Shown: positions 35,014-54,913, counted from the stretch's first letter. The stretch: DNA of 64,000 bases from an uncultured Chloroflexia bacterium (GCA_963806175.1 CAWDXA010000011.1:602065-666064), one strand, 5' to 3'. Program-made: numbers and translations. The notes: generated by a model from the sequence alone, not told the origin.

Positions 35014-35730
35014 TCAGGCGTGTCGAGGTCGGGGATCGGCGTCGGGCAGCGCCTCGCGTCCGGGCGGGACGAGCCGGTAGCCGAGGCCGCGGACCGTCTC
35101 GATCGCCGGGCCCTCCGGCCGGAGCTTCTTGCGGACCTCGGACACGTGGACGTCGACCGTCCGGGTCTCGCCGGGGAAGTCGGTGCCCCAGACGTCCTCG
35201 AGGAGCGCGTCGCGGGTGAGGACGACGCCCGGGTCGCGGGCCAGGGCCACCAGCAGGTCGAACTCGCGCGATCGGAGGTCGAGCCGGCGCCCCGCCACGG
35301 TGGCTTCGCGCCGGCGCGGATCGATGCGCAGGTCGCCGACCTCGATCGGACGTCCGCCACGGCTGGTCACCTCGGTCCGGCGCAGGATCGCCTTGACGCG
35401 GGCCATCAGCGCCCGGGGGTTGAACGGCTTGGTGACGTAGTCGTCGGCGCCGAGCTCGAGCCCCACGATCGCGTCGATGTCGTCGTCGCGCGCGGTCAGC
35501 ATCAGGACCGGCGTGTCGCCGCGTCGGCGGAGCTCGCGGCAGACCTCGAAGCCGTCCTTCCCGGGCAGCATCAGGTCGAGGATCACGAGGTCGGGATCGT
35601 GCCGGGCATGCAGGGCAAGGGCCTCGTCGCCGTCGCCGGCGGCCAGCACGGCGAAGCCCTCCTTCTCGAGGTAGAGCCGCACGAGGTCGACGATGTTGCG
35701 CTCGTCGTCGACGACCAGGATCGTCTTCAC
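35014..35730 (-). CDS. OmpR/PhoB-family response regulator
   Basis: GTG 35730 gives VKTILVVDDERNIVDL...LDLMLPGKDGFEV...VTKPF and the winged helix TVDVHVSEVRKKL...VRGLGYRL. It is intact. Confidence 0.95.
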   Translation of the reverse strand: MKTILVVDDERNIVDLVRLYLEKEGFAVLAAGDGDEALALHARHDPDLVILDLMLPGKDGFEVCRELRRRGDTPVLMLTARDDDIDAIVGLELGADDYVTKPFNPRALMARVKAILRRTEVTSRGGRPIEVGDLRIDPRRREATVAGRRLDLRSREFDLLVALARDPGVVLTRDALLEDVWGTDFPGETRTVDVHVSEVRKKLRPEGPAIETVRGLGYRLVPPGREALPDADPRPRHA

Positions 35731-35844
35731 TCGACCAACGATAGCGTCGGGCGTCGGGGCGATGGCCCTCGACGTAAGCTGCGTGTAAGCGGCGGTGCCG
35801 ACGGCCATGGATCGGGCACGCCGCGTCGCTGGGAGCACCATCCG

Positions 35845-36762
35845 ATGTTCGCGACGCTGCTCGGACCGCTGCCGCGCCCGCCCCTGGCCGCCCGACGCGA
35901 GCGATCTCGACCTCGTCGAGGCGGCGGTCCGGGCGCAGGAAGCCGCCGGGCTCGAGCCGGTCACCGACGGCGGGCTGGAGAACGGCCGATCGCCGCTCGA
36001 GCGCTGGCTGGCGATGGCCGGGCTGACGTCGAAGGCCGCCAAGCAGGACCTGGTCGGCCCGCTGACCACGGCCCGGGGAGGAGATCGGGCGGCCGTGCCT
36101 CGCGGCGGCCGAGACCCTCAACGCGGATCTCCGGGCACTGGCCGCCGCCGGCTGCCCGATGATCGAGATCCACGAGCCGGCGGCGATCGAGATCGGGTCG
36201 CGACGAGGCGGCGCGGCGGCTCTTCCGGGAGGCGCATCGTCGCCTGCTCGACGGGGTGGACGGGCCGCACCTGTCGCTGGCGATCATCGGCGGCAATGCC
36301 GACGCCGACCGGGATCGACACGCTGCTGTCGGCCCCGTACGCCAGCCTGGCGGTCGACCTGATCGCCGGGCCGGACAACTGGCGGCTGGTGGTGGCCACA
36401 CCCGGCGACCGGGGCATCGTGTGCGGCGCACTCTCGCCCGAACCCGAGCTCGGACGACTCGCCGGAGGTCCTCCTGTGGGCCGCCGCCTACGCGGCGTCG
36501 ACCGCCGGCCGCGGGCCGTCCCGCGTCGGGCTGGCGACGGCCGGTTCGCTCGGCGGGCCTGACCTGGGAGGCCGCCGTCGCGAAGATGCGCCGGCTCGGC
36601 GAGGCGGCCCGGCTGGCCGACCTGCCGCCCGACGAGCTCCGTCGCTCGATCGACCCGCGGGCCGTGGACATCCGGAGTGCCGCGTTCGGGCGAGTCGACG
36701 CCCCGGCCGCCCGTCGCGGGGTCGCCGTTCCGGGCGCTGAACCTCGGCCGGGCAGCGCTTGA
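35845..36762 (+). pseudogene. Cobalamin-independent methionine synthase (MetE C-terminal-like / UROD-fold) family protein, multiple frame shifts
   Basis: MFATLLGPLPRPP, LVEAAVRAQEAAGLEPVTDGG, CPMIEIHEPAAIEIG, HLSLAIIGGNADA and LSAPYASLAVDLIAGPDNWRLV are spread over at least 4 frames. Confidence 0.6.
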
Positions 36763-36854
36763 TTCCGTCGCGCTCCGGTGCCACCATCCTCGCCTCCAGG
36801 ACTTCAGCGCTCGCCGATTCGTCTCCACCAGTGCGTCGCAGGAGGTTCTCGTCC

Positions 36855-37352
36855 GTGGGCGAACACATCTCGTTCGTGGTCAACGGCACACCCCGGGAGC
36901 TGGACGTCGAGCCCAGACGGCTGTTGGTCCAGGCCCTCCGCGAGGACCTGGACCTGACCGGGACCCATGTCGGTTGCGACACCAGCCAGTGCGGGGCCTG
37001 CACCGTCCACGTCGACGGCATGGCCGTCAAGTCGTGCACGATGCTGGCCGTCCAGGCCGACGGCTCGGACGTCCGCACGATCGAGGGGCTCGCCGACGGC
37101 GAGACGCTCCACCCGCTCCAGGCCGCGTTCTGGGAGAAGCATGGCCTGCAGTGCGGGTTCTGCACGCCGGGCATGATCATGACCGCGGCCGACCTGCTGG
37201 CGCGCAACGCGGATCCGTCCGACGACGAGATCCGGCACGCGATCGAGGGCAACATCTGCCGCTGCACCGGCTACCAGAACATCGTCGCCGCCGTCCGCGA
37301 GGCGGCCCGCGTCGTCCGCACCGACGGCGCGCCGGTCGCGGCCCAGGGCTGA
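36855..37352 (+). CDS. coxS: Form II CODH/xanthine-dehydrogenase-family small subunit, [2Fe-2S]
   Basis: AGGAGG is followed by GTG 36855. The protein has [12 protein letters not shown] and [10 protein letters not shown]...CRCTGY and is intact. Confidence 0.9.
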
Positions 37353-37363
37353 GGAGAAGCGCC

Positions 37364-39768
37364 ATGGCAGTCGACGTGCTCGGCTCCCCGGTCAAGCGAA
37401 CCGAGGACCCCCGGTTCATCACCGGCAAGGGTCGCTACCTCGACGACATCAAGCTCCAGAACATGGCCCACATGGCCATCCTCCGCAGTCCGTACGCCCA
37501 CGCCAACATCAGGTCGATCGACACCTCGGCGGCGAAGCGCGATGCCCGGCGTCATCGCCGTCATCGTCGGGGCCGACATCCCGTACAACCCGCTGCCGAT
37601 GGCCTGGCCGGCCGGCGGCTCGTCGGGCATCCAGAACAACGTCAACACGCCGCGCGCGCTGGCCACCGACAGCGTCAAGTGGACCGGCGAGGGCGTCGCG
37701 GCGGTCGTCGCCGAGACCCCGGAGCAGGCGGTCGACGCGCTCGAGGCGATCGCCGTCGACTGGGAGCCGCTGCCGGCCGTGGTCGATGCCGAGAAGGCCA
37801 CCCAGCCCGGCGCGCCGCAGCTCCACGAGAACGCCCCGAACAACGTCGTGTTCGTCTGGAACGTCGGCGACAAGGCCGGCACGGACGCCGCCATCGAGTC
37901 GGCCGAGGTCGTGGTCAGGCAGCGGATCGTGAACCAGCGGCTGATCCCGAACCCGATGGAGGTCCGCGGCGACATCGGCCTGTACAACCCCGGCACCGAC
38001 GAGTACACGGTCTGGATGTCGAGCCAGACGCCGCACATCCAGCGGCTGCTCCTGACCGCGTTCGTGACCGGCATCCCCGAGCACAAGGTGCGCTGCATCT
38101 CCCCGGACGTCGGGGGCGCCTTCGGAACGAAGATCTTCTGCTACGCGGACATGGCCCTGGTCATGTTCGCCAGCAAGGCCATCGGCGGACGCGCGGTCAA
38201 GTGGGTCGAGAGCCGCCGCGAGAGCTACGGCTCCACGATCCACGGCCGCGACCACATCACGTACCTCGAGATCGCCGGCACGCGCGACGGCCAGGTCACC
38301 GGGCTGCGGGTCAAGACCTACGCGAACCTCGGCGGCCGGCTGTCGACCATCGGCCCCGGCATCCCGACCACGCTCTACGGACGCGTCCTGTCGGGGCCCT
38401 ACAAGTTCCCGAACGTGTCGTGCGAGGTGACCGGCGTCTACACGAACACGACCTTCGTCGACGCCTACCGCGGCGCGGGCCGACCCGAGGCGACCTATGT
38501 CGTGGAGCGGGCCATGGACCTGTTCGCGGCCGAGATCGGGATGGACCCGGCCGAGCTCCGCCGGCGCAACTTCATCGCGCCGGACCAGTTCCCGTACGAC
38601 AACCCGTCCGGCCTCGGGACGGCCGTCAACGGCGAGAAGATCTTCATCGACTCGGGCAACTACGAGCCGGCGATGGACAAGGCGCTGGCGACCGTCGGCT
38701 ACAGCGGACATGGCCGCGAAGAAGGCCGAGGCCCGGGCGCGTGGCAAGTACCTCGGCGTCGGCCTGTCGACCTACATCGAGGTCTGCGGCGTCGCGCCGT
38801 CGAAGTGGATCGGCGCGGTCGGCGAGGGCTGGGGCGCCGCGATGTGGGAGTCGGCCAACATCAAGGTCCACCTGACCGGCAAGATCATCGCCACGGTCGG
38901 CACCCAGCCGCAGGGCCAGGGGCACGAGACGACCTACGCCCAGGTGATCTCGCACGAGCTGGGCGTGCCGATGGAGGACGTGATCGTCCAGCACTCGGAC
39001 ACGCAGGGCACGCCGTTCGGCTACGGCTCGTACGGCAGCCGGACCAGCTCGGTGGGCATGACCGCCGCGGTCAAGGCGGCGGCCAAGGTCCGCGAGAAGG
39101 CACGGCGGTACGCCGCCCACATGCTCGAGGCGAACGTCGAGGACATCGAGGTCGACGGCGCCAACTACCGGGTCAAGGGGTCGCCGGACAAGGTCAAGAC
39201 CATCCAGGAGATCGCGTTCGCGATCGATCTCGGCTTCAGCCTCCCGCCCGACATGGAGCCGTACCTCGACGAGACCGCCTATCACGACACGCCGAACTGC
39301 ACGTGGCCGTTCGGCACCCACATCGCGGTCGTGGAGGTCGACGAGGAGAGCGGGGTGGTCGACCTCGTCCGCTACGTCGCGGTCGACGACGTCGGCAAGA
39401 AGATCAACCCGCTGATCGTCGACGGCCAGCTCCACGGCGGGATCGCCCAGGGTGTCGGCCAGGCGCTCTGGGAAGGCGCGATCTACGGCGACGACGGCCA
39501 GCTCCAGTCGGGCTCGCTGCTCGACTACGCGCTGCCGCGGGCGTCGTGGTTCCCGAACCTCGAGCTCGACGAGACGGTCACGCCGTCGCCCGTCAACCCG
39601 CTCGGCGTCAAGGGCGTCGGCGAGGCCGGGGCGATCGCCAGCACGGCGGCGGTCTCCAACGCGGTGATCGACGCGCTGCGTCCGCTCGGCATCCGCCATC
39701 TCGACATGCCGTACACGGCGCAGACCGTGTGGCGGGCGATCCAGGGTTCGAAGGGAGGCCGGGCGTGA
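37364..39768 (+). pseudogene. coxL: Form II CoxL-like molybdopterin large subunit (substrate unknown), 2 frame shifts
   Basis: It starts MAVDVLGSPVKRTEDPRFITG. The form II signature AYRGAGR is at 38463-38483. The breaks are at ~37540 and ~38705, and the pieces are ORFs 36677-frame, 37542 and 38497..39768. Confidence 0.9.
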
Positions 39769-40632
39769 TCCCCGCGGCGTTCGACTACCAGCGCTCGGCC
39801 ACGCTCGACGACGCGCTCCGGGCCATCTCCGGCGCGAAGGGCACGGTCAAGTTGCTGGCCGGCGGCCAGAGCCTGCTGCCGCTGCTCAAGCTCCGGCTCG
39901 GATCGGCGGACCTGCTGGTCGACATCGGCCGGCTGGCGGAGCTCAAGGGCGTCCGTCCGCTCCCGGACGGCAGGCTGGCGATCGGCGCCATGACCACGTA
40001 CAGCGAGCTGGCCGAGTCAGCGGCCAGGAACTACGGGCTGCTCCGAGACGCGCTGCCGACGATCGGCGACGTCCAGGTCCGCAACCGGGGCACGGTCGGG
40101 GGCGCGATCGCCCATGCCGACCCGCGTCTGACCTGGCCGCCTGCCTGCTGGCCCTCGACGCCGAGATCGTCGCCCGCTCGGTCAGGGGCGAGCGGACGAT
40201 CCCGATCGACGGGTTCTTCACGGGTCCGTTCTCGACCGGGCTCGCGTCCGACGAGCTGATCACGGAGGTCCGGCTGCCCGGCCCCCGCGACGACGCCGGG
40301 TCGGCCTATGCCTGCCTCGAGCAGCCGGCCTCCGGCTACGCGATGGTCGGCGTGGCAGCGGTCGTGTTCGTGGCCGGCGACGGCTCGATCGCCGGGGCGA
40401 ACGTCGCCCTGACGGGCGTCGGGCCGACATCCCGTACCGGGCTCGGGCCGTGGAGGCGGCACTGGCCGGCTCGGACCGCTCGGCCGCGTGGCCATCCGGG
40501 CGGCCGCGGCGCACGCCACCGACGGCGATCGACGTCGTCGGTGACATCCATGCCGACCCGGCCTACCGAACGGCGATGGCCGCCGTCTACACCCGCCGCG
40601 CGATCGAGGCCGCCCTCGCCCGGCTCGCCTGA
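39765..40632 (+). pseudogene. coxM: Form II CODH-family medium (FAD-binding) subunit, frame-shifted
   Basis: GTG 39765 overlaps the coxL stop. It has LLAGGQSLLPLLKLRL, VRNRGTVGGAIAHADP and the C-terminal DIHADPAYRTAMAAVYTRRAI (ORF 40450..40632). The breaks are at ~40125 and ~40430. Confidence 0.85.
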
Positions 40633-40647
40633 CGGGCCGGTCACCGC

Positions 40648-41699
40648 GTGCGAGTCGAGCGGGTCACCCCGGGCAAGCGCCCGCCCGCTCGACTGGCCGG
40701 GTCCGTCCTGGCGCGCGACCTGGCGCTCGGCGGCGCCCGCTGGGCCAAGGGCCGGCGGCTGACCGCCGACGACCTGCTGGCGATCGCGGCAGCCGAGCCC
40801 GACGGAACCGGTCAGCGTGCTGGTCCCGGACTCCAGCGAGCTCCACGAGGACGAGGCAGCGCTGCGGCTGGCCGCGGCGGTCGGCGGGCCCGGGCTCACG
40901 GTCGCGCGGGCCCGTCCCAGAGCCGGGTCGACCTGGTCGCCGCAGCGCGGCCGGCGTCGCCAACGTGCGGATCGCCGACCTCGAGCGGCTCAACCGGATC
41001 GATCCGCTCGAGGTCTTCACCGTGTTCGACGGCCAGGTCGTCGAGGCCGGGCGACCTCGTCGCCAGCGTCAAGGTCGCCCCGCACCTGGTCGAGGCCGCG
41101 ATCGTGGAGGAGGGCGCGCGCCTGGCCGACTTCGGTGGCCGCCCGCTCGTCTGGGTCGCCCCGTTCGTCCCGAGCCGGGTCGGGGTGATCGTCAAGGAAT
41201 CGGTTCGGGCCACGGCCCGGGAGCGGTTCGAGACGAGCGTCCGCGCGAAGGTCCAGGGGCTCGGCTCCGACGATCGCCTCGATCGTCTATGTCGAGGACG
41301 ATCCGGAGGCGGTGGTAGCCGCGATGTCCGCCTTCGTCCGCGGCCCCGACACCGTCGACCTGATCCTGACCGCCGGCGCGGCCAGCACGGACCCGCTGGA
41401 CGCCTGCTTCGTGGCGATCGCCGCTCTCGGCGGGCGCGTCGTCCGGCGGGGAGTGCCCGGCCCACCCCGGGTCGATGCTCTGGCTGGCCCGGATCGGGCG
41501 GACGGCGATCCTCGGCCTGCCGACCTGCGGTGCCTACTCGAAGGCGACCGCCGCGGACCTGCTGCTGCCCCGGCTGCTGTCCGGCGAACCGGCCTCGGAA
41601 CGGACGGTCGCCAAGCTCGGCCACGGCGGGATCCTGACCCGCAGCCAGCGCTTCCGGTTCCCGCCCTACGCTCGCGAACTGGACGCGCCGGATGGCTGA
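40648..41699 (+). pseudogene. Molybdopterin-binding (MoCF-biosynthesis, MoeA/CinA-like) domain protein, multiple frame shifts
   Basis: It contains VGVIVKESV, VDLILTAGAASTDPLD and HPGSMLWLARIGRTAILGLPTCGAYS, and ends in ORF 41475..41699. The pieces are in 4-5 frames. Confidence 0.55.
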
Positions 41700-41727
41700 C
41701 GCGCCCGGCGTGTAGGATCGGCCCACG

Positions 41728-42646
41728 ATGCGCGACCGCGACCAGCGCCCAGCCGGCACCCGTTCCATCGAGGCGATCCAGGACGACTTCCGCGCCCGCA
41801 ACTACATCGCGGACCGGTCGGTCGCCACGGCCGTCTTCCTGGCCCTCGAGCTCGAGCGGCCGCTGCTGCTCGAAGGCGAGGCCGGCGTCGGCAAGACCGA
41901 GCTCGCCAAGGTGCTGGCGGCGGCGCTCGACACCCGCCTGATCCGCCTCCAGTGCTACGAGGGCCTGGACGTCAACACCGCGGTCTACGAGTGGAACTAC
42001 CCGCGCCAGATGCTCGAGATCCGGCTGCTCGAGGCGCGTGGCGAGGCCGAACGGGCTACCGCCCACGACATCTTCGGGCCCGACTTCCTGATCCGCCGGC
42101 CGCTCCTCCAGGCGCTCGAGGCGGCCGACGGCAACGCGCCGGTCCTGCTGATCGACGAGATCGACCGGGCCGACGAGGAGTTCGAGGCGTACCTCCTCGA
42201 GATCCTGTCGGACTTCCAGGTGACGGTCCCCGAGATCGGCACGATCCGGGCCGAACGCGCCGCCCCGGGTGATCCTGACCTCGAACCGGACCCGCGAGGT
42301 CCACGACGCGCTCAAGCGCCGCTGCCTGTACCACTGGATCGACTACCCGACGGCCCAGAAGGAGTACGAGATCGTCCTGGCCAAGGTGCCCGAGGCTCCC
42401 GAGCGCCTGGCCCGCGAGGTCGTGGCCTTCGTCCATCGCCTGCGCCAGGCCGACCTGACCAAGGTCCCGGGGATCGCCGAGACGCTCGACTGGGCGGCCG
42501 CGCTCCTGTCGCTCGGGGCCCGCGAGCTGGCGCCGGAGCTCGTCGACGAGACCCTCGGCGTCGTCCTCAAGTACGAGGAGGACATCCGCCAGGTCCGCGG
42601 CGACGGGACCCGGCGGTACCTGACCGAGGCCGCCGCCGGCGGCTGA
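41728..42646 (+). pseudogene. coxD: MoxR-type AAA+ ATPase (CoxD-like), one frame shift
   Basis: It has Walker A EGEAGVGKTELA and Walker B VLLIDEIDRAD, then ILTSNRTREVHDALKRRCLYHWIDYP in ORF 42269..42646. The break is near 42265. Confidence 0.85.
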
Positions 42647-42661
42647 CCGACCCGTCCCAAG

Positions 42662-44057
42662 GTGCAAGCCATGCCGGATCCCGCGATCGTCAAGGCGCCC
42701 TGGGGGCCCGAGGTCGACGGGCGCCGGCTGCTCGGCGAGGCCGTCGGGTTCGGCCGGTCGCTCCGGGCGGCGCGCCTGTCGATCGACCTCGGCGCCGCCG
42801 TCGACTTCGCGCGCGCCCTCACCCTGGTCGACATCGCCGATCGCGAGCAGGTCCGGGCGGCCGGGGCCGCCATCTTCGTTCGCCGGCGCGACGACCGGCC
42901 GTCTACGACGCCGCCTTCGACCGCTGGTGGCGCCGCCGTGCCGGCCAGGTCGACGCAGGAGTTCCAGCCCTCCTCGCTCCGTCGCGAGGAAGAGGCCGCC
43001 GCCGAGGAGGAGGTCCAGGGCGCGACCCCGCCGGAGCCCGGGTCCGAGCAGGCCACGATGCGCCCCGAGGAACGCGGCACGCCGATCCCCTCCGATTCCG
43101 ACGAGGACGCCGACGACGAATCGCCGATCGAGGGCGTCGTGGTCTCGCCCGACGCGTACTCCCGCGGCGAGGTCCTGCGCCACCGCGAGTTCGACCGGAT
43201 GACGCCCGGCCGAGCTGCGCGAGGCCGAGCGCCTGGTCGACCTGCTCGTCCCGCGGCTCGAGCGTCGCCGGACGCGCCGCTACGAGCTCCACACCCACGG
43301 CCGCCGGCTGGCGCCGCGGGCGATGTTCCGGCGCAACCTCGGGACCGGCGGCCAGCTGCTCTCCTGGGTCTGGCGCCGGCAGATCCGCGAGCCGCGTTCG
43401 CTGGTCGTGCTGTGCGACATCTCGGGCTCGATGGAGCGCCACTCGCGCCTGCTGCTGCGGTTCATCCAGGCCCTGTCGGCGGCGTCGGAGGTGCGGACCG
43501 AGTCGTTCGTGTTCGGGACGCGCCTCACGCGGGTGACTCGGCTCATGCGCGACCGCGACCGCGATCGGGCGCTGGCCCGCGTGGCGGACTCGGTCAACGA
43601 CTGGGCCGGCGGGACGCGGATCGGCGACTCGTTCCGGACGTTCAACCAGCACTGGGCGCGGCGATCGCTGCGGACGTCCGGCGTCGTGGTCGTCGTGTCC
43701 GACGGCTGGGACCGCGGCGACCCGACGATCGTGGCCGCCGAGACGGCCCGCCTCCGTCGCAACTGCCACCGCCTCGTCTGGCTCAACCCGCTGGCCGGCA
43801 CGCCCGGCTACCAGCCGCTGGCCGGCGGCATGCGGGCGGCCTACCCGTACATCGACGACTTCCTGCCGGCCGGCACGGTCGCCAGCCTCGAGCGGCTCGG
43901 CGAGATCCTGGGCGGCGTCCGGGCCGGCGACACGCGACGGGGCAGCGAGGCGGCCGCCCACGCGGCCCTGCCGGCCGACGGACCGCTGGTGTACGGCCTG
44001 CCGGGCGTCGTCGGCGGCGAACCCGTCGATCCCGGAGTTGCGAGGCCACTGCGATGA
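42662..44057 (+). pseudogene. coxE: VWA-domain CoxE-like protein, frame-shifted
   Basis: The MIDAS region is LVVLCDISGSMERHS. VVVVSDGWDRGDP and RLVWLNPLAG lie in ORF 43323..44057. The N-terminal part is in ORF 42662, with additional breaks at ~42900-43210. Confidence 0.8.
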
Positions 44058-45179
44058 AGGAACTGCTCGAGACGCTGGCCGGCTGGGAGCGCGACGGCGT
44101 CGGGCATCGGCCGCGCCGTCGTCGTCCGGACGTTCGGGTCCGCGCCACGACCCGAGGGTGCCGTCCTGCTGTACGCGAGGGACGGCCGGATCGCCGGCTC
44201 GGTCAGCGGCGGCTGCGTCGAAGGGGCGGCCGCGGAGGAGATCGAGCACGCCTGGACGAACGGCCACGCCCGGGTGATCCGCTACGGGATCAGCGACGAG
44301 CAGGCCTGGGACGTCGGGCTCGCCTGCGGCGGCACGATCGACGTCCTCGTCGAGCCGGTCGCGCCGGCCGTCGTGATCGACGCGGCGCGCGGGTCCGTGG
44401 GCGCGAACGGCCACGGCGCGGCGGTCATCACGCCGCTCCCCGCCGACTCGCCGCCGGGCGAGTTCGGGCCGCACCAGCCGGGGCCGGGCGCGCCGCCGGC
44501 GGCCGAGCTGGTCGTCTCGGACGCGGGACGCCTGACCGGCACGCTCGGCAGCGCCGAGCTGGACGCCGCGCTCGTCGTCCGCCGCCACGGAGGCCCTCCG
44601 CCGCGGGCTGTCGCGGACGGTCGAGCTCGGCGGTCGCTCGCTGTTCATCGAGGTCTTCCCGGTCCGCCCGCGCCTGGTCCTGGTCGGCGGCGTCGAGGTC
44701 GCCCGGTCGCTGGTCCGGCTCGCGCGCGAGCTCGGCTTCGAGACCGTCGTGGTCGACGGTCGCGCGTCGTTCGCCACGCCGGAGCGGTTCCCCGACGTGG
44801 ACCGGCTGGTCGTCGGCTGGCCGGACGAGGTCGCCGACGAGATCGGCCTCGGCCCCAACGACGCCGTCGCCGTCCTGTCGCACGACGTCAAGTTCGACGA
44901 GCCGGCGATCGTCGAGGCGCTCCGCCGCGGCTGCCGCTACGTGGGGGCGGTGGGCTCGCGCAAGACCCAGGCGGACCGGCAGGCGCGCCTCCTGGCCGCC
45001 GGCGTCGCGACGGCCGACCTCGCGCGGCTCCGCGGACCGGTCGGGCTGGACCTCGGCGGACGGGCGCCGGCGGAGACGGCGCTGGCGATCCTGGCCGAGA
45101 TCGTGGCCGAGCGCTACGGCGGCTCCGGCGCCCCGATGCGCGAGCGCGCCCTCGCCGCCGGCGGCGAGGCCGGGCCTGA
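44054..45179 (+). pseudogene. XdhC/CoxF-family molybdoenzyme maturation protein, frame-shifted
   Basis: ATG 44054 overlaps the coxE stop. It has GSVSGGCVEGAAAEE, DVGLACGGTIDVLVEP, a Rossmann part (LVLVGGVEVARSL) and GAVGSRKTQADR. The stop is unclear: the open frame runs on into the next domain. Confidence 0.8.
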
Positions 45180-45805
45180 CCTTGTCGCCGCGCGCAGGCC
45201 GCCGGGACCGACCGTCGCGCTCGTGCTGGCCGCCGGCGCCGGATCGCGCTTCGGCGGCGGCAAGCTGCTCGCGCCGCTCGCCGGCCGGCCGATCCTGCAG
45301 CACGTCCTCGACCCGCTGGCCGCCGCCGGGACTCGCCGACGTGACCGTCGTCCTCGGGCGCGACGCGCCGGCGATCGAGCGGGCGATCGCCTGGCGAACC
45401 GAGCGGCGGGTCGTCAACCCGGACCCGGAGCGCGGCCTGTCGAGCTCGCTCCAGGTCGGGATGGCGACGCGTCCCGGCCGATGCCGACGCGGTCCTGATC
45501 GCCCTCGGCGACCAGCCGCTGGTGGCGGTCGGCGACGATCCGGGCGTTGCTGGCCGCCGCCGTGCGAGCCGTCCAGGCCGGTCGTGGTGCCCGCCTACGC
45601 CGGCGATCCCGGCCGCAATCCCGGTGCTCCTTCGGCGGCGCGGCCTTCCGCCTGGTCGGCGAGGCCTCGGGCGATCGCGGGCTCGGACCGGTCCTGGCGG
45701 CCCATCCCGGACGTCGTGCAGGAGGTTCCGATCACCGGCGACAATCCCGACGTGGACACCCAGGCCGACCTCGCCCGGGCCGTCGAGGCGGCGTGGGCCG
45801 CCCGG
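45136..45805 (+). pseudogene. MobA/MocA-like molybdenum cofactor nucleotidyltransferase domain; boundaries uncertain
   Basis: It has VALVLAAGAGSRFGGGKLLAPLAGRPIL, NPDPERGLSSSLQ, LIALGDQPLV and DNPDVDTQADL. No stop separates it from the XdhC tail upstream or the methyltransferase downstream. The breaks are at ~45330 and ~45480-45620. Confidence 0.6.
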
Positions 45806-46608
45806 GTGCGCGCCAACCGCGAGCAGGTGGAGCGGGTTCGCGAGGTCCCCGACGGAGCCGACTTCTACGCCCCGGTGCGCTCGCTCTTCCGAGCCGACCC
45901 GACGCGAACCGACGACCCGATCCTGGATGTCCTGCTCGACCTGGTCCGGTCCGGCGACCGCTGGCTCGACGTCGGGGCGGGAGCCGGTCGGTTCGCGCTG
46001 CCGCTCGCCCGGGCGCTCGACCCGTCGGGTGGCTCCGTGGTCGCGCTCGACGCGTCGCCCTCGATGCTCGAAGGCTTGCGCGAGATCGCCGAGGACTACG
46101 CGATCGAGAACGTCCGGGCCGTGGAGGCCCGCTGGCCGCCGGCGGACGCCGGGGCCTTCGACAGCGGACGTCGCGCTGATCGCGCACGTCGGCTACGACA
46201 TCGAGGCGATCGGTGCCTTCATCGACGCCCTGGAGGCGACCGCGCGACGCCTGTGCGTGGCCGTCCTGACGGAGCAGCCACCCGCCGCCGCCGCCGACCC
46301 GTTCTGGCCGGCCGTCCACGGTGAGGCGCGGTCGACCCTGCCGGCGCTGCCCGACCTCGTCGAGCTGCTCGTGGCGCGGGGCCGCGAGCCGTCCGTCGTC
46401 CGCATCCTCGGGGAGCCACGCCGGTTCGAGACCGCGCGACGCGCTCGAGGGGTTCGTCCGGCGGCAGCTGTGGATCGACCCGGCCGGCCGCAAGGCGGGC
46501 CGTCTTCGCGCGGCGCTCGACGACCTGGCGATCGCCGACGGTGACGGCTGGACGATCCGCGGGCGACTGCCGACCGATACCGGGGTGGTGACCTGGAGCC
46601 CGCACTGA
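45806..46608 (+). pseudogene. Class I SAM-dependent methyltransferase domain, frame-shifted
   Basis: It has RWLDVGAGAGRFALPLA (motif I) and VVALDASPSMLE, and ends ...GVVTWSPH at 46608. The breaks are at ~46165 and ~46430. The start given is the first in-frame GTG after the MocA DxDT motif. Confidence 0.6.
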
Positions 46609-46765
46609 GCGCACCCTCCCCCGGATGACCCCGTTGCCCCCGAAGGGATGATCCCGCCGGTGGATGGCGGGCCAGGCAATCCGGCGGCGCTCCGGCGGCG
46701 TACGGGGATCGAAGGGCGACGACGGACGCGCTCGATGCACGAGGTGACCCGACCCACGAGACACG

Positions 46766-46795
46766 TTGACGTGCGAACGACCCGAGGCGGATACT
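46766..46795 (+). promoter_or_regulatory. Candidate sigma-A-type promoter for the form I cox operon
   Basis: TTGACG (46766-46771), an 18-nt spacer and GATACT (46790-46795). The -35 lies inside the near-palindrome CACGT-TG-ACGTG. The ATG of coxM is ~150 nt downstream. Confidence 0.4.
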
Positions 46796-46947
46796 CCGCC
46801 GCAGCGCATTCCCAACACCCACCGGACCCCCGGTCGACGCCCCCCGACGTGACCGCCGGCCCGCGATCGTCGCCAAGGTTCTGGGCCCATCCGGGCCGGA
46901 TGGCGCCGACATCGTCCCGCTTGTGCGGGGAGGAGGGTCCCAGCGCG

Positions 46948-47841
<894 letters not shown>

Positions 47842-47845
<4 letters not shown>

Positions 47846-48354
47846 CCACCCAGCACGTCACGGTCACCGTCAACGGCACGACCCACGAAGCCGACGTCGA
47901 GCCTCGACTCCTCCTCGTCCATTTCCTGCGCGACAGCCTCGGCCTGACCGGCACCCACGTCGGCTGCGACACCAGCAACTGCGGCGCGTGCACGGTCCAT
48001 ATCGACGGCCAGAGCGCCAAGTCCTGCACCCGGCTGGCCGTCCAGGTCGACGGCTGCCAGATCAAGACGATCGAGGGCATGGCCGACGAGCCGCACCTCC
48101 ATCCGCTCCAGCAGGCGTTCTGGGACCAGCACGGGCTCCAGTGCGGGTTCTGCACCCCGGGCATGATCATGCAGTCGGCCTGGCTCCTGGACCAGAACGC
48201 CGATCCGTCCGAGGCGGAGATCCGCGAGGGGATCAGCGGCAACCTGTGCCGCTGCACCGGCTACGTGAACATCGTCAAGTCCATCCAGCAGGCGGCCGCC
48301 GAGATGCGGACGGCCGCCGCAACCCAGACCGGCGCGCCGGTCGCGGCCGGTTGA
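47842..48354 (+). CDS. coxS: Form I CO dehydrogenase small [2Fe-2S] subunit
   Basis: ATG 47842 overlaps the coxM stop (ATGA). It has [12 protein letters not shown] and [10 protein letters not shown]...CRCTGY and is intact. Confidence 0.95.
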
Positions 48355-48369
48355 GCGGGGAGTGACGAG

Positions 48370-50758
48370 ATGACCACCGAAGCAGACACCCCGCACGACG
48401 TTCGAGATGGGTGGCATGGGCCACTCGGTCAAGCGCAAGGAAGACCCGCGGATGATCCGCGGCCAGGGCGAGTACATCGACGACGTCAACCTGCCCGGCC
48501 AGCTGTGGCTGGACATCGTCCGCAGCCCGTACGCGCACGCGACGATCAAGGGGATCGACGCCAGCGAAGCGCTCAAGATCCCGGGCGTCCTGGCGGTCGT
48601 CACCGGCAAGGATCTCGAGGGCTACAAGCTCCACTGGATGCCGACGCTGGCCGGCGACATGCAGATGGTGCTTCCGACCGACACGGTCATGTACCAGGCC
48701 CAGGAAGTCGCCGCGGTCATCGCGACCACCAAGTACATCGCCGCCGACGGCGTGGCCGCGGTTCTCGTCGACTACGAGCCGCTGCCGGTCATCGTCGATC
48801 CGTTCAAGTCGCTCGAGCCCGACGCGTTCGTGCTCCGGCCGGACCGCGGACCCGACAAGCAGAACAACCACATCTGGCACTGGGAGTCCGGCGACCGGGC
48901 GGCGACCGACGCCGACCTCGCCGCGGCCGACGTCCACATCGAGCAGGACATCTACATCCCGCGGATCCACGTCGCGTCGATCGAGACGTGCGGATGCGTC
49001 GCCGACTGGAACCCCGTCCGCCAGCAGCTCACGCTCCACATGACGTCCCAGGCGCCGCACGCCATCCGCACGGTGCTGGCGCTCGTCGCCGCCGGCGCCG
49101 GCCTGCCGATCAGCGAACAGAACATCCGGGTGAAGACCCACGACATCGGCGGCGGGTTCGGCGGCAAGGTGCCGGTCTACCCGGGGTACGTCCTCGCCGT
49201 CGCGGCGTCGTTCCTCATCGGCAAGCCGGTCAAGTGGATCGAGGATCGCTCGGAGAACCTCCAGGCCGACTCGTTCGCCCGCGACTACCACATCCACGCC
49301 GAGCTGGGCGCGACCAAGGACGGCAGGATCACCTCGCTCAAGGCGAAGACCATCGCCGACCACGGGTACAGCGACGCCGCGGCCGACCCGTCGAAGTACC
49401 CGGCCGGGCTGTTCAACGTCATCACCGGCTCGTACGACTTCCCGAACGCCTTCGTCGAGGTCGACGGCGTCTACACCAACAAGCCGCCGGGAGGCGTGGC
49501 CTACCGCTGCTCGTTCCGGGTGACCGAGGCCGTCCACGCCGTGGAGCGGATGGTCGACATCCTCGCCCACCAGATCGGCAAGGACCCGGCCCAGCTGCGG
49601 ATGGAGAACTTCATCCAGCCCGAGCAGTTTCCCGTACAAGACCCCGACCGGCTGGTCGTACGACTCCGGGAACTACCCCGCCGCGCTCCAGAAGGCCATG
49701 GACATGATCGACTACGCCGGCCTCCGCAAGGAGCAGGCGGAGAAGCGCGCCAGGGGCGAGCTGATGGGCATCGGCATCAGCAGCTTCACCGAGATCGTCG
49801 GCGCCGGTCCGTCGCACGACTTCGACATCCTCGGGCATCAAGATGTTCGACGCCTGCGAGATCCGGGTCCATCCGACCGGCAAGGTCATCGCGCGGCTCG
49901 GCGTCCAGTCCCAGGGCCAGGGCCACGAGACCACGTTCGCCCAGATCATCTCCGAGGAGCTCGGCTTCCCGGTCGCGGACATCAAGATCGAGGAGGGCGA
50001 CACCGACACCGCGCCCTACGGCCTCGGCACGTACGCCTCGCGGTCCACGCCGGTCGCCGGCGCGGCCACCGCCATGGCGGCCCGCAAGATCCGCGACAAG
50101 GCGCGCAAGCTGGCCGCGCACCTGCTCGAGGCCAATGAAGAGGACCTCGAGTGGGAGCCCGGCAAGTTCAGCGTCAAGGGCTCGCCGGACCGGTTCAAGA
50201 CGATCCAGGAGATCGCCTTCGCGGCCTACACCAACCACCCGCAGGGCATGGAGGCGGGTCTCGAAGCGGTCGACTACTACGACCCGCCGAACCTGACCTT
50301 CCCGTTCGGCAGCTACATCTGCGTCGTCGACATCGACAAGGCGACCGGCCAGGTCCACGTCCGCCGCTTCGTGGCGGTCGACGACTGCGGCAACATCATC
50401 AACCCGATGATCGTCGACGGCCAGATCCACGGCGGCCTGACGATGGGCCTCGCCCCGTCGCTGTACGAGGAGATCACCTACGACGAGCTGGGCAACAACC
50501 TGGCCGGCACGTTCATGGACTACCTGCTCCCGACGGCGGTCGAGACGCCGAGCCTGGGAGACCGGCAAGACGATCACGCCGTCGCCGCATCACCCGATCG
50601 GCGCGAAGGGGGTCGGCGAGTCGGCCACGGTCGGCGCGCCGCCGGCGATCGCCAACGCGGTCGTCGACGCCCTCTGGCATCTCGGCGTCCGCAACGTCGA
50701 CATCCCGATGACGCCCCAGAAGATCTGGGCCATCCTCCACGAGAAGGGCGTGGCCTAG
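48370..50758 (+). pseudogene. coxL: Form I CO dehydrogenase large Mo-Cu subunit, about 4 frame shifts
   Basis: The form I active-site loop VAYRCSFR is at 49496-49519. It also has KRKEDPRMIRGQG. The pieces are ORFs 48370, 48407..50296, 49698-frame and 49843-frame, with breaks at ~48400, ~49640, ~49835 and ~50560. The stop is TAG 50756-50758. Confidence 0.9.
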
Positions 50759-50767
50759 GTCGCCGCG

Positions 50768-51805
50768 ATGACCGCGCAGTCGATCTTCGCAAGGGCCGCC
50801 GAGCTCGAGGCGGCAGGCCGGTCGTTCGTGGTCGCCACCGTCGTGGCGGTCCGGCGGCCGACCTCGGCCCGCCCGGGCGCGTCCGGGATCGTCCATCCCG
50901 ACGGCACGATCGAGGGCTGGGTCGGCGGCAGCTGCGCCCAGCCCGTCGTCGTCCGCGAGGCGCTCCGGGCGCTGGTCGACGGCCAGCCGCGCCTCCTCCG
51001 CCTGTCGAAGGACGTGCCGGCCGAGGGCCGGCGCGGCGACGGGATCGTGGAACTGGTCATGACCTGCCATTCCGGGGGAACACTGGAGATCTACGTGGAA
51101 CCGCACCTGCCTGCGCCGGTCCTGTGGGTGGCCGGAACGACCCCGATCGCGGGCGCGCTCGTCGCGCTCGGTTCGGCGGCCGGCTGGCGCGTCTCGGTCT
51201 TCGACCCGGTCGCCGACCCGGCCGCCTTCCCGGGCGCCGAGCACGTCGGGCTCCGGCAGCCGAGCTCCGGGACACGGACCCGGCGGCGGCGCCGGCCGTC
51301 GTGTCGCCACGCAGGGCGTCTGGGACGAGGAGGCGCCGGCCGCGGCGCTGTCGCGGAACGCCGCCTATGTCGGGCTGGTCGCCTCGCCGACGCGGGCCGG
51401 CGTCGTGCGCGCCTGGCTGCGCGACGAGGCGCGGATCCCGGATGAGCGGCTGGCCGCGCTGCGCGCGCCGGCCGGTCTCGACCTCGGGGCCGAGACGGCC
51501 GAGGAGGTGGCCCTCTCCATCCTGGCCGAGCTGGTCCAGGTCAGGCGCGGTACCGCGACGTTCGTCGCCTCGCCGGGACCGGCGACCCTCGCCGGCGCCG
51601 GCGAACCCGCCGTCGATCGAGCCGGTCGTCGACGACATCGTGCTGCTGGACCCGGTCTGCGGGATGACCGTGGACCGGGCGCACGCGCGGCACCTCGCCG
51701 AGCACGACGGAGTGGTCTACGCCTTCTGCTCGATGGGCTGCCGGACGAGCTTCATCCGCGAGCCCAGCCGCCTATCTGCCGCCCTCGGTATCATCCCCGG
51801 ACTGA
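50768..51805 (+). pseudogene. XdhC/CoxF-family protein with C-terminal YHS (TRASH-type metal-binding) domain, frame-shifted
   Basis: It has GWVGGSCAQPVV and CHSGGTLEIYVEP (XdhC N-terminal domain), a Rossmann part, and then DPVCGMTVDRAHARHLAEHDGVVYAFCSMGCRTSF (YHS) at ~51649-51770. The breaks are at ~51250, ~51590 and ~51757. Confidence 0.75.
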
Positions 51806-51839
51806 TCCGGGCCGCATCTCGTAGCGCTGGAGTATCGGC

Positions 51840-52282
51840 ATGCGTTTCGAAGGCACCGTCCCAATCCGCGCGTCACGTGACCGCGTCTGGGCGTTCGTGA
51901 TCGATCCCCAGCAGGTTGGCCAGTGCGGCCCCGGCGTCGAGAAGATCGAGGTCGTCGACGCATACACACTTCAAGGCGACGGCCAAGGTCGGGATCGGCT
52001 TCATCAGCGCCCGCTTCGTGGTCGACATGGAGTTCGCCGAGTCCGCAGCCGCCGGACCGCGCGCTCATCAAGGCCCACGGGCAGGCGCCCGGCAGCGCGG
52101 TCGACGCGACCGCCGAGATGCGCCTGTCGGACGGCCCGGATGGCACGACCGTCATGGACTGGAATGCGGACGTCAACATCGCGGGGACGCTCGCCAGCAT
52201 GGGTGCGCGGCTGATCGAGGGCACGGCCAACAAGATGATCGGCCAGACCTTCGAGTGCATGCGCGCGAAGCTCGAGGCGTGA
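51840..52282 (+). pseudogene. coxG: CoxG-like SRPBCC protein (CO dehydrogenase subunit G), 2 frame shifts
   Basis: MRFEGTVPIRASRDRVWAFVIDPQQVGQCGPGVEKIEVVD is followed by FKATAKVGIGFISARFVVDMEF and then MDWNADVNIAGTLASMGARLIEGTANKMIGQTFECM (ORF 51923..52282). Confidence 0.8.
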
Positions 52283-52313
52283 CCGATCGGCCCATGGCCG
52301 TGCGCCTCGCCGC

Positions 52314-53255
52314 GTGACCTTCTCGATCGTCGCGCTCGACCCGGCCAGCGGCGACCTCGGCGTCGCGGTCCAGTCGAAGTTCCTGGCCGTTGGTTCGGTG
52401 GTGCCCTGGGCGATCGCCGGGGTCGGCGCGATTGCCACCCAGTCGTTCGCCAACGTGGCATACGGCCCGGACGGTCTGGCGCTCCTGGCCGGCGGGCGCT
52501 CGGCGCAGGATGTCCTGACCCGGCTCGTGTCCGATGACAGTCTGCGCGACCAGCGCCAGGCCGGGATCGTCGACGCCCAGGGCCGCGCGGCGACCCACAC
52601 TGGCCGGCACTGCTTTGCCTGGGCCGGTGGGCGCACCGGCGCGGGTTTCGCGGCGCAGGGCAACATCCTGGCTCGCGCCGAGGTCGTCGACGGGCTCGCG
52701 GACACGTTCCTGGCCGGTGGCCGGCCGTTTCCCGAGTTGCTCGTGGCCTGCCTGGCCGCCGCCGATGCGGCCGGCGGGGATCGGCGCGGTCGCGAGTCGG
52801 CCGCCCTGCTCATCGTCCGTGCCGCGGGCGGGTATGGCGGCGGCAACGATCGATGGCTGGACCTCCGCGTCGATCACCACGCCGACCCGATCGGTGAGCT
52901 GGCCCGCCTGGTCGACCTCCAGCACCTCTACTACGACCGGCCGTCGATCGACGATCTGCAGGCCGTCGACGAGGAGGTCGCCGCCGAGATCCGGACTCTC
53001 CTCGAGTCACTCGGGGCCGGTCCGGGCGGGCGCTTCGGCGCCGTCTACACCCACATGGGCGGCGCCGTTGCTGGCGACACCGAGCCGCGCCCGTTCGTCG
53101 GGGAGTCGCGGCCCTATCCGTCCAACTGGGACGAGCGCTGGCAGCGTGCCCTCGACGACTGGATGGGGGTGGCGAACCTCGAGGAGCGAGCGGCCGCTCC
53201 CGGCTGGGTCGACGGACGCGTGCTCGCGGTGCTGCGCGATCAACGGCCCGCCTGA
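52314..53255 (+). CDS. DUF1028 (Ntn-hydrolase fold) protein with a C-terminal extension
   Basis: GTG 52314 gives MTFSIVALDPASGDLGVAVQSKFLAVG, the typical DUF1028 N-terminus with Thr2. The 313-aa ORF is intact. Confidence 0.8.
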   Translation: MTFSIVALDPASGDLGVAVQSKFLAVGSVVPWAIAGVGAIATQSFANVAYGPDGLALLAGGRSAQDVLTRLVSDDSLRDQRQAGIVDAQGRAATHTGRHCFAWAGGRTGAGFAAQGNILARAEVVDGLADTFLAGGRPFPELLVACLAAADAAGGDRRGRESAALLIVRAAGGYGGGNDRWLDLRVDHHADPIGELARLVDLQHLYYDRPSIDDLQAVDEEVAAEIRTLLESLGAGPGGRFGAVYTHMGGAVAGDTEPRPFVGESRPYPSNWDERWQRALDDWMGVANLEERAAAPGWVDGRVLAVLRDQRPA

Positions 53256-53308
53256 CCGCTCGACCCACCGGCATCGGCCTGCATCGGTCGTCTGCCACAA
53301 TCGGACCG

Positions 53309-53948
53309 ATGGAACGCCTCACCCGCGTGGTCGGCCCGGTCGCGACCAACGTCCACGTCCTGGCCGATGAGCAGTCGCACGAGGCGATCGCGATCGACAC
53401 CGCGACCCCGAGCCTGGCCTGGATCTCCGAGGCGCTGGCCGAGCGTGGCTGGACGCTCAAGCTGATCGTGTCCACGCACGGCCACTGGGATCATATCGGC
53501 GACAACGCTGCGGTCGCGGCCCACACCGGGGCGCCGATCGCCGTCCACCCGCTCGATCGCGACCGACTCGAGCACCCGCGTGCCGCTCTTCGCTCCGTTC
53601 GACATCCCGCCGTCGGTGCCGGCCGTCGAGCTGGCCGAGGGCGGGCTGGTCCGCTTCGGCGACATCCGCCTGCGCGTCCTCCACACGCCCGGTCACACCG
53701 AGGGGTCGGTCTGCCTGCTGTCCGAGGACGACGGCCTGCTGTACAGCGGCGACACGCTGTTCGCGGCCGGCTGGGGCCGGGTCGACCTGCCCGGCGGTCA
53801 CGCCGAGGCCATGGTCGAATCGATCGGACGGCTGGCATCCCTCGACGACCGGGTGGCGGTCTTCCCCGGCCACGGCAAGTCGACCACGATCGGGCGCGAG
53901 CGAGCCTGGATGGAGCTCGTCCGCGACAGCGGCCGGTTGTTCGCCTGA
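53309..53948 (+). pseudogene. MBL-fold metallo-hydrolase (glyoxalase II-like), one frame shift
   Basis: It has STHGHWDHIG (HxHxDH), then VLHTPGHTEGSVCLL and VFPGHG in ORF 53580..53948. The break is near 53580. Confidence 0.85.
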
Positions 53949-53949
53949 C

Positions 53950-54913
53950 TCAGCGCTCGAGTGGTCGCCCGTACGCCGTCGACCGGCGGAAGACCGTGAA
54001 CCCGAGGCGCTCGTAGAGACCGAGTGCGCCGGTCGGGTTCTGGGCGTCCACTCCAAGCATCGCCTCGTCCATCCCGGCATCGCGTACCTTGCGCAGCGCC
54101 GCCGCGGTCAATGCCCGGCCGAGCCCGCGCCGCCGCCACGGTCGGCGCACGCTGATCCGCTCAAGCCAACCACGGCGGACGCCGAGTCGTTCGTTCTCGG
54201 TCGGCCAGATCCAGGTCTCGACGACACCGGCAACGTCATTGCCGTCCCACGCCACGACCCACAGGCCCGTGTCGTTTTCGTCCTGGTCGAACGTCTGGCG
54301 AAACGCCTCTTCGCCCATCTCGTGATGGCCCCAATGGTCCCGGAAGGCCTCGTTCTCGGCCTCGAAGACCGCGCGATGGTGCTCCGGCTGAACGGGTCGG
54401 ACCTCCAGTCCGTCCGGCATCGGCACGGACGGGTACGCGGTCCAGGTCGGTGTGGCGCATCAGGAAGAAATGGCGGACGGGGACGAAGCCGGCCTGCTCG
54501 TACAGGGTCCGTGCACCGACTTCCGGCTCCTCGGCGTCGGCGAGGATCTCCACCGCGCCGTCCGGGTCCTCGACCCGGGCACGCTCCGCCACCCGACGAA
54601 GGCTCCAGTCGAACAGCCAGCGCCCGATGCCGCGGCGGCGCATCTCGGGGGCGACCCGGCCCCACAGGTCGTAGGTGGGCGTGTCGTCGCGCAGTTGCCG
54701 CTGCACGGACGTGACCGCGATCAACCGCCCGCCCGCCTCGACGAGCACCACGTCGCGAGCCGGATCGATGCCTTCGCGCCGCATGGAGAGACGCAGGTTG
54801 TCGGCGGTCGGCAGCCACGGGATGTCGTCGTGGGCGTGGCACTCGCGGACGAGGGCCGACAGTGGCTCGAAGTCCGCGTCGTTCGTGACGAACCGAACCT
54901 GCAGGCCGTCCAT
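53950..54913 (-). pseudogene. Tandem-GNAT acetyltransferase, mycothiol synthase (MshD)-like, one frame shift
   Basis: The N-terminal GNAT is ORF 54236..54913 (RRRGIGRWL). The C-terminal GNAT is ORF 53950..54426 (VRRPWRRRGLGRALT...LGVDAQNPTGALGLYERLGF). The break is near 54430. Confidence 0.65.

Follow-up and report, generated by a model that had tools for sequence, protein, structure and literature searches.

Gene content and state of the cluster

The DNA analyzed here (the window: 64,000 nucleotides, G000:C11:602065-666064; GCA_963806175.1 CAWDXA010000011.1) comes from an uncultured soil Chloroflexia bacterium of the Limnocylindria type. Between positions 36855 and 52282, its plus strand carries thirteen genes for two molybdenum (Mo) hydroxylases of the carbon monoxide dehydrogenase (CODH) family and for their putative maturation factors (Table 1). 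The 3.29-Mb assembly consists of 14 contigs with 71% G+C and an estimated completeness of 76%. The closest named contigs belong to "Candidatus Limnocylindrales bacterium" and "Chloroflexota bacterium" metagenome-assembled genomes (MAGs). Genes were called by Pfam searches on stop-to-stop pieces of the plus-strand frames and by tblastn with the intact proteins of G010, a close relative (95% complete) that contains the same cluster with intact genes.

The cluster begins with structural genes in the form II order coxS-coxL-coxM (Pfam domains Fer2/Fer2_2; hammerhead, MoCoBD_1, MoCoBD_2; FAD_binding_5). The middle part encodes accessory proteins with the domains MoCF_biosynth (a weak match), AAA_5, VWA_CoxE, XdhC_CoxI + XdhC_C, NTP_transf_3, and Methyltransf_25. 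The second set of structural genes follows in the form I order coxM-coxS-coxL (FAD_binding_5 + CO_deh_flav_C; Fer2/Fer2_2; hammerhead, MoCoBD_1, MoCoBD_2), and the cluster ends with XdhC_CoxI + XdhC_C, YHS, and COXG. The first coxL codes for an AYRGAGR loop (FVDAYRGAGRPE, 38463-38483) and the second for a VAYRCSFR loop (GGVAYRCSFRVTE, 49496-49519). No other AYxCSFR or AYRGAGR motif occurs in the 3.29-Mb assembly.

The identity of the large subunits was examined with intact homologues and by phylogeny. CoxL1 of G010, which is 90-95% identical to the second CoxL of the window, scores 1207.9 with NCBIfam TIGR02416, the equivalog model for the aerobic CODH large subunit (cut-off 991). The same protein gives more than 1000 bits to the solved form I CODHs from Hydrogenophaga pseudoflava (1FFU), Mycobacterium smegmatis (8UEM), and Oligotropha (1N5W). 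CoxL2 of G010, the homologue of the first CoxL, stays under the cut-off with 739.8 and reaches only 600-685 bits to these structures. Two trees were computed: a FastTree phylogeny of 121 large subunits (the three CODHs from the PDB, quinoline oxidoreductase, 80 named form II loci, and a sample of the phylum) and a quick IQ-TREE phylogeny with 58 rows. In both, the second CoxL falls with a support of 100 into the clade of all AYxCSFR sequences, including 1N5W, 1FFU, and 8UEM. The first CoxL is found inside the AYRGAGR assemblage together with Bradyrhizobium and Mesorhizobium loci (FastTree support 81 for the whole set, higher at inner nodes). Quinoline oxidoreductase (QorL) lies outside this assemblage in the FastTree phylogeny, and the AYRGAGR label needs only two changes on the IQ-TREE phylogeny. 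As judged by family model and tree placement, the second CoxL is a true form I subunit and the first is a form II subunit. A preliminary description of the locus, which had named this gene order, located both motifs, and taken the second enzyme for a bona fide CO dehydrogenase, is borne out on these points by the Pfam and tblastn calls and by the fully supported clade with the solved form I enzymes.

Table 1. Features of the cluster at 36855-52282 (window coordinates)
Feature	Position	Strand	Evidence and remarks
form II coxS (2Fe-2S subunit)	36855..37352	+	Fer2, Fer2_2; 84% identity to G010 CoxS2; single frame
form II coxL (molybdopterin subunit)	37352..39768	+	Hammerhead, MoCoBD_1, MoCoBD_2 in three frames; indels near 37530 and 38710; 80-85% identity to G010 CoxL2
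form II coxM (FAD subunit)	39765..40632	+	FAD_binding_5 in two frames; tblastn with G010 CoxM2; 2 frameshifts; protein starts with VIPAAFDY
MoCF_biosynth-domain (molybdopterin-binding) accessory protein	40648..41699	+	weak Pfam match (clear in the intact G010 protein); tblastn; ~3 frameshifts
coxD (MoxR-type AAA+ ATPase)	41728..42646	+	AAA_5; 91-94% identity to G010 CoxD; 1 frameshift
coxE	42662..44057	+	VWA_CoxE 8.7e-61; tblastn; 1 frameshift; start uncertain
xdhC-family maturation factor without YHS tail	44058..45200	+	XdhC_CoxI, XdhC_C; 84-92% identity to G010 protein; 1 frameshift; 3' end uncertain in assembly
mocA (molybdopterin cytosine dinucleotide (MCD) cytidylyltransferase)-class I methyltransferase fusion	45214..46608	+	NTP_transf_3, Methyltransf_25; ~3 frameshifts; TIGR03310 match below cut-off
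non-coding gap before form I coxM	46609..46947 (339 nt)	+	promoter-like element, palindrome, ribosome-binding site
form I coxM	46948..47845	+	FAD_binding_5, CO_deh_flav_C; tblastn pieces 76-91% to G010 CoxM1; 4 frameshifts; single-base insertions relative to G016 at 47187, 47375, 47463, 47645
form I coxS	47842..48354	+	Fer2, Fer2_2; 85% identity to G010 CoxS1
form I Mo-Cu CODH coxL	48370..50758	+	hammerhead, MoCoBD_1, MoCoBD_2; 90-95% to G010 CoxL1; 3-4 frameshifts
xdhC with C-terminal YHS/TRASH metal-binding domain	50768..51805	+	XdhC_CoxI, XdhC_C, YHS; 2-3 frameshifts
coxG (SRPBCC)	51825..52282	+	COXG in two frames; 2 frameshifts

As assembled, about 25 single-base indels scatter all genes of the cluster except the two coxS over different reading frames, a point that the preliminary description does not mention. 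According to a plot of G+C at third codon positions (GC3) and a frame-tracking Viterbi path, the genes change their coding frame internally every 200-1200 nt. Correspondingly, tblastn with the intact G010 proteins resolves the cluster into about 40 in-frame pieces, or roughly 25 frameshifts in 15.4 kb. Taken alone, this density could indicate a decaying relic made of real pseudogenes. However, the Viterbi path switches frames at the same density across the whole window, and the essential rpoB gene (G000:C11:1434042-1437328) is broken into at least seven pieces. Since the same damage is present throughout the window and in rpoB, the frameshifts are errors of an error-rich, probably long-read assembly and not signs of decay. 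G016, a near relative with 88% nucleotide identity, differs from the window by 21 indels between 46.9 and 52.3 kb; 20 of them are not multiples of three, and most add one nucleotide to the window. GC3 remains at 0.9-1.0 even in shifted frames, and the proteins of the cluster are 85-95% identical to those of relatives. These observations make decay highly improbable, and the pseudogene reading was rejected because the frameshifts are genome-wide. The small number of contigs together with 76% completeness fits an unpolished long-read MAG, and we therefore treat the genes as intact, as they presumably are in the living organism.

Any "pseudogene", "fusion", or "read-through" in this genome needs checking against a relative first. 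The xdhC frame, for example, runs into mocA without a stop codon (44536-46608), whereas xdhC and mocA are separate genes in G010 (L011:9186-11715). The mocA-methyltransferase gene is one intact open reading frame of 469 residues in G010. Based on this intact layout, we conclude that the mocA-methyltransferase fusion is real and that the read-through from xdhC is probably an assembly artefact. Downstream of the cluster, a DUF1028 gene with a peptidoglycan-binding tail (52239-53255) separates coxG from the gene for an MBL-fold hydrolase; in G010, the MBL gene directly follows coxG.

The form I cassette and its leader

The two coxL genes are collinear and 11-20 kb apart in at least ten species of the genus. 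Genomes in which one enzyme is missing delimit the parts of the cluster. G004 (91% complete) and G102 (97%) contain the form II genes followed by coxD-coxE-xdhC-mocA-methyltransferase-coxG-MBL, with mocA-methyltransferase abutting coxG, and form I coxL was not found anywhere in either genome. The direct succession of mocA-methyltransferase and coxG without form I genes in between is also seen in G291. Conversely, G268 (95% complete, two contigs) is devoid of the form II genes and retains the series MoCF-coxD-coxE-xdhC-mocA-methyltransferase-coxM-coxS-coxL1-xdhC-YHS-coxG. The last 39 residues of coxM2 persist as a deletion scar between the upstream gene and the MoCF gene. Because of these variants, we consider coxM-S-L-xdhC-YHS (46.9-51.8 kb) as a block that, judging from gene content, comes and goes as a unit. 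By the same comparison, coxG is assigned to the form II scaffold and not to the form I cassette. Since G004 is nested among cassette-bearing members of the genus in the CoxL tree, secondary loss is the simpler reading of its missing cassette. One contig end of this genome (G004:C12; L013:13784-14176) holds an inverted duplicate of the start of coxD, which is probably an assembly artefact.

In other Chloroflexota, too, the form I genes act like a small mobile cassette. They follow coxD-coxE-coxF in G312, precede the form II genes in an Anaerolineae MAG, and are convergent with them in G183; across the phylum, the cassette may lie upstream or convergent, at a distance of 47-284 kb, or on another replicon. 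In G190, it stands alone on a 918-kb second replicon, while the only coxD and coxE of this genome lie beside coxG-coxS-coxL(AYRGAGR)-coxM on the 2.0-Mb chromosome.

The 339-nt gap in front of form I coxM contains the sole sigma-70-like match between 36000 and 53500 (TTGACG-18-GATACT, 46766-46795). It is followed by a perfect palindrome (CCATCCGGGCCGGATGG, at about 46886-46904, ~45 nt before the start codon) and a ribosome-binding site (GGAGGAGG). Seven of nine relatives have conserved the hexamers, the palindrome, and the ribosome-binding site in front of coxM1, whatever lies upstream, with the promoter-like element at the same distance from the coxM1 start codon. The DNA upstream of this element varies: it measures 0.3 kb in the window, 1.4 kb in G016, and 4-6 kb in G007, G015, G147, and G299, and it comprises four small genes in G010. 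Because the element is conserved while the upstream content differs, the form I genes very probably have their own promoter. Rfam gave no match in 35500-54000, gap included, and the leader folds no better than shuffled sequences (z = 0.65). The palindrome could be a candidate operator for a CO- or starvation-responsive regulator.

These data bear on the possibility that all 13 genes form one transcription unit, in which form I would be expressed by read-through from the form II promoter and both enzymes would be obligatorily co-expressed. All genes share one strand, the 46609-46947 gap yielded no terminator-like site, and G236 and G276 are similarly compact. Nonetheless, the only promoter-like match in 17.5 kb lies in precisely this gap and is the conserved one. 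Moreover, other genes occupy 1.4-6 kb at the junction in G010, G016, G015, G007, G147, and G299, and in G007 and G015 they include an opposite-strand DUF1801 gene. In other Chloroflexota, the cassette takes the further positions named above. We therefore consider a single transcription unit quite unlikely, although some read-through may occur in this particular genome. The "fused" supercluster of the preliminary description is better replaced by two neighboring units, as the compact junction is not conserved and the form I genes are preceded by a promoter-like element of their own.

Maturation genes and the enzymes they may serve

The preliminary description regarded coxDEF behind a form II enzyme as an anomaly. 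This premise does not hold. In forty 20-kb regions around coxE from 39 Chloroflexota genomes, the recurrent layout is coxS-coxL(AYRGAGR)-coxM-coxD-coxE-xdhC(-mocA), often with coxG in front; most of the Chloroflexota sampled show it. The 80 named form II loci represent many phyla, and 58 of them are informative (at least 5 kb downstream of coxL). In 24 of these 58, coxD occurs on the same strand within 5 kb downstream, in 21 it is accompanied by coxE, and in 30 coxD or coxE is present somewhere in the locus. The phyla include Pseudomonadota, Acidobacteriota, Bacillota, Myxococcota, and Methylomirabilota, and one locus is from a haloarchaeon. A MoCF-type protein also recurs in form II clusters of other phyla. 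According to the literature, form II has no consensus accessory gene order (PMC11411561), and other reports define form I and form II without describing an accessory layout (PMC13203968, PMC13240472, PMC7645674). What we found in print on form I/form II adjacency and on form II accessory genes consists of general statements, with no account of the layout described here. Hence coxD, coxE, xdhC, mocA, and coxG, usually called form I accessories, belong to form II clusters in many lineages. For annotation this means that a complete accessory set does not by itself make a coxSLM cluster a CO dehydrogenase.

The two XdhC proteins of the cluster are of different types. Form I-only clusters were sampled in two groups, the Oligotropha/Bradyrhizobium family with the order coxM-S-L-D-E-F-G, and Actinomycetota with the order mocA, xdhC-YHS, coxD, coxE, (coxG), coxM-S-L. 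For the XdhC-type gene of either group, the better match in the window is xdhC-YHS and not the xdhC after coxE. In Chloroflexota, Actinomycetota, and Deinococcota, a gene of the xdhC-YHS type stands either upstream or downstream of form I coxMSL. The YHS/TRASH tail (DPVCGM...FC..C) accompanies form I in these three phyla and in a myxobacterium, but alphaproteobacterial CoxF is devoid of it. The xdhC after coxE is of the type found at this position in form II clusters. Since XdhC from form I-only clusters best matches xdhC-YHS, this gene after form I coxL is, by sequence comparison, the form I-specific CoxF-type factor, and the gene after coxE, previously labeled "xdhC/coxF", is the form II-linked type. 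NCBIfam models gave CoxD and CoxE nothing beyond uninformative MadB/MadC-family matches below threshold. The CoxD proteins of the window's family, including that of the form I-only genome, are located in the half of the CoxD tree dominated by form II-linked copies, and all paradigm form I-linked CoxD proteins (Oligotropha-type and actinobacterial) are in the opposite half.

We propose that the cluster is not one fused operon but a pair of adjacent modules. Module A would be an ordinary form II cluster with coxS-L(AYRGAGR)-M, the MoCF-binding protein, coxD, coxE, xdhC, and mocA-methyltransferase, and with coxG at its far end. Module B would be a portable form I cassette, coxM-S-L(AYRCSFR) with xdhC-YHS, nested between mocA-methyltransferase and coxG and equipped with the promoter-like element and leader described above. 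The form I enzyme would be matured by CoxD and CoxE (and MocA) from module A together with its own XdhC-YHS, and the module A helpers would also serve the form II enzyme. We regard this arrangement, two modules with one helper set for both enzymes, as reasonably probable.

Several observations support the shared helper set. The genome encodes seven Mo-hydroxylase large subunits (five besides the two CoxL), and its single coxD, single coxE, and both xdhC genes are all in this cluster. No second coxD or coxE was found in the assembly, so that the duplicate coxDEF genes envisaged by the preliminary description did not turn up. CoxD and CoxE are reportedly required for assembly of the Mo-S-Cu site in Oligotropha. 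Given this requirement and the single copies in the genome, maturation of the form I enzyme most likely depends on the module A helpers. In the phylum sample, whose genomes are not independent, coxE occurs in 44 of the 45 other form I-bearing genomes versus 162 of 301 overall. The distance between form I genes and coxE is 12 kb or less in only 12 of these 45 genomes, but in all five from the window's family. Together with the single copies and the coxE association, the G268 and G004 variants support the view that one helper set may act on both enzymes. Of the two options that the preliminary description had left open, a shared maturation module is the best reading of these deletion variants; read-through co-expression is not conserved.

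An alternative is that the two operons are merely side by side: the helpers would serve form II or other Mo hydroxylases, and XdhC-YHS alone would mature form I. Form II-linked coxD and coxE are indeed a widespread layout, and the CoxD of the window's family belongs to that lineage. Furthermore, two of seven sampled actinobacterial form I clusters are without coxD or coxE within 40 kb. G291 (L023, G291:C66) and G111 (L019, G111:C66) keep coxD, coxE, xdhC, mocA-methyltransferase, and coxG, although form I or form II coxL was not found in either. Because the helpers persist there without coxL, they may serve other Mo hydroxylases, or these two clusters may be decaying. In contrast, G268 lost form II and kept the helpers ahead of form I, and coxD lies next to coxMSL in 13 of the 15 form I-only clusters sampled outside the phylum (12 of them also have coxE, and one further cluster has coxE alone). 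These findings, the near-constant presence of coxE in form I-bearing genomes, and the reported CoxD requirement in Oligotropha make mere juxtaposition unlikely. The actinobacterial exceptions and the genomes G111 and G291 nevertheless count against a shared helper set, as do three further points: the relatives are not independent samples; the CoxD tree split is only moderately supported (94 and 86, SH-like (Shimodaira-Hasegawa-like) values from FastTree) and rooted at the midpoint; and the genes are broken in the assembly, so that their intactness is deduced from the genome-wide error rate. In G291, coxS is directly followed by coxM, as though coxL alone had been excised.

The shared helper set leads to a broader and more tentative proposal: Chloroflexota form I would be a minimal four-gene cassette that depends, in cis or in trans, on the CoxD/CoxE/MocA/CoxG machinery of the far more widespread form II enzymes, a machinery whose core job would not be Cu insertion. 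This is possible, though we would not yet call it probable. If true, form II enzymes would be matured by the same AAA+/VWA system despite having no Cu-binding cysteine, and the core job of this system would be a different one, such as sulfuration or cofactor insertion. Form II chemistry would also become testable in cultured Thermomicrobium. It is itself a testable idea that coxD and coxE belong in the first place to form II clusters and that form I relies on them.

Comparison with known systems

The coxMSLDEFG genes on plasmid pHCG3 of Oligotropha carboxidovorans, the paradigm of form I Mo-Cu CODH, resemble the form I part of the window in the coxM-S-L order and the AYRCSFR loop, and the CoxL proteins are about 60% identical (1026 bits to 1N5W). 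The genes coxD and coxE, an XdhC-type factor, and coxG are also all in the neighborhood (coxB, C, H, I, and K are outside this comparison). The two systems differ in the position of these genes. In place of the Oligotropha-type coxD-coxE-coxF series, only xdhC-YHS and coxG follow form I coxL in the window; coxD and coxE lie 4-5 kb upstream of the form I genes, behind form II coxSLM, and CoxD is of the form II-linked lineage. Directly behind coxL, the window encodes an XdhC bearing a YHS/TRASH tail, unlike the tailless alphaproteobacterial CoxF.

Form II (AYRGAGR, coxSLM) was reportedly defined with putative CODH clusters from Bradyrhizobium and Mesorhizobium. These loci have the same motif, gene order, and tree clade as the form II genes of the window. 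The sampled Bradyrhizobium and Mesorhizobium loci contain no coxD or coxE within 10 kb, whereas both are directly downstream in the window, as in roughly half of the remaining form II loci sampled, and the form I cassette is present in addition.

A parallel in gene content is G190, with coxG-S-L(AYRGAGR)-M-D-E-xdhC-mocA on the chromosome (L027, G190:C1:1190700-1210699), a coxM-S-L(AYRCSFR)-xdhC-YHS cassette (L168, G190:C2:546000-565999), one coxD, and one coxE. The difference is that the cassette is on the second replicon instead of nested in the form II cluster. From gene positions and published locus tags, we infer that G190 is Thermomicrobium roseum. The form I genes of this organism are trd_A0564-6 on the megaplasmid (Wu 2009, PMC2615216), and its chromosomal coxGSLM genes trd_1206-1208 with the maturation genes trd_1209-1215 have been called a type I CODH (Islam 2019, PMC6776052). 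G190 has its AYRGAGR motif in the chromosomal coxGSLM and its AYRCSFR motif on the second replicon. Should G190 be T. roseum, the label "type I CODH" applies to form II genes.

Actinomycetota form I clusters differ from the window in that no form II coxSLM stands in front, xdhC-YHS is upstream instead of after coxL, and CoxD belongs to the other part of the tree. On the other hand, their accessory genes also precede coxMSL, and their xdhC also has the YHS tail. Form I CoxL of the window's family shares 72-75% identity with actinobacterial CoxL but only 61-62% with CoxL from several other Chloroflexota, which suggests that the form I cassette moved between phyla. Overall, the cluster is not a new system; it combines well-known parts in a new arrangement, which recurs in Limnocylindria and also occurs in other Chloroflexota. 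Its local novelty is the position of the four-gene form I cassette, coxM-S-L with xdhC-YHS, between mocA-methyltransferase and coxG.

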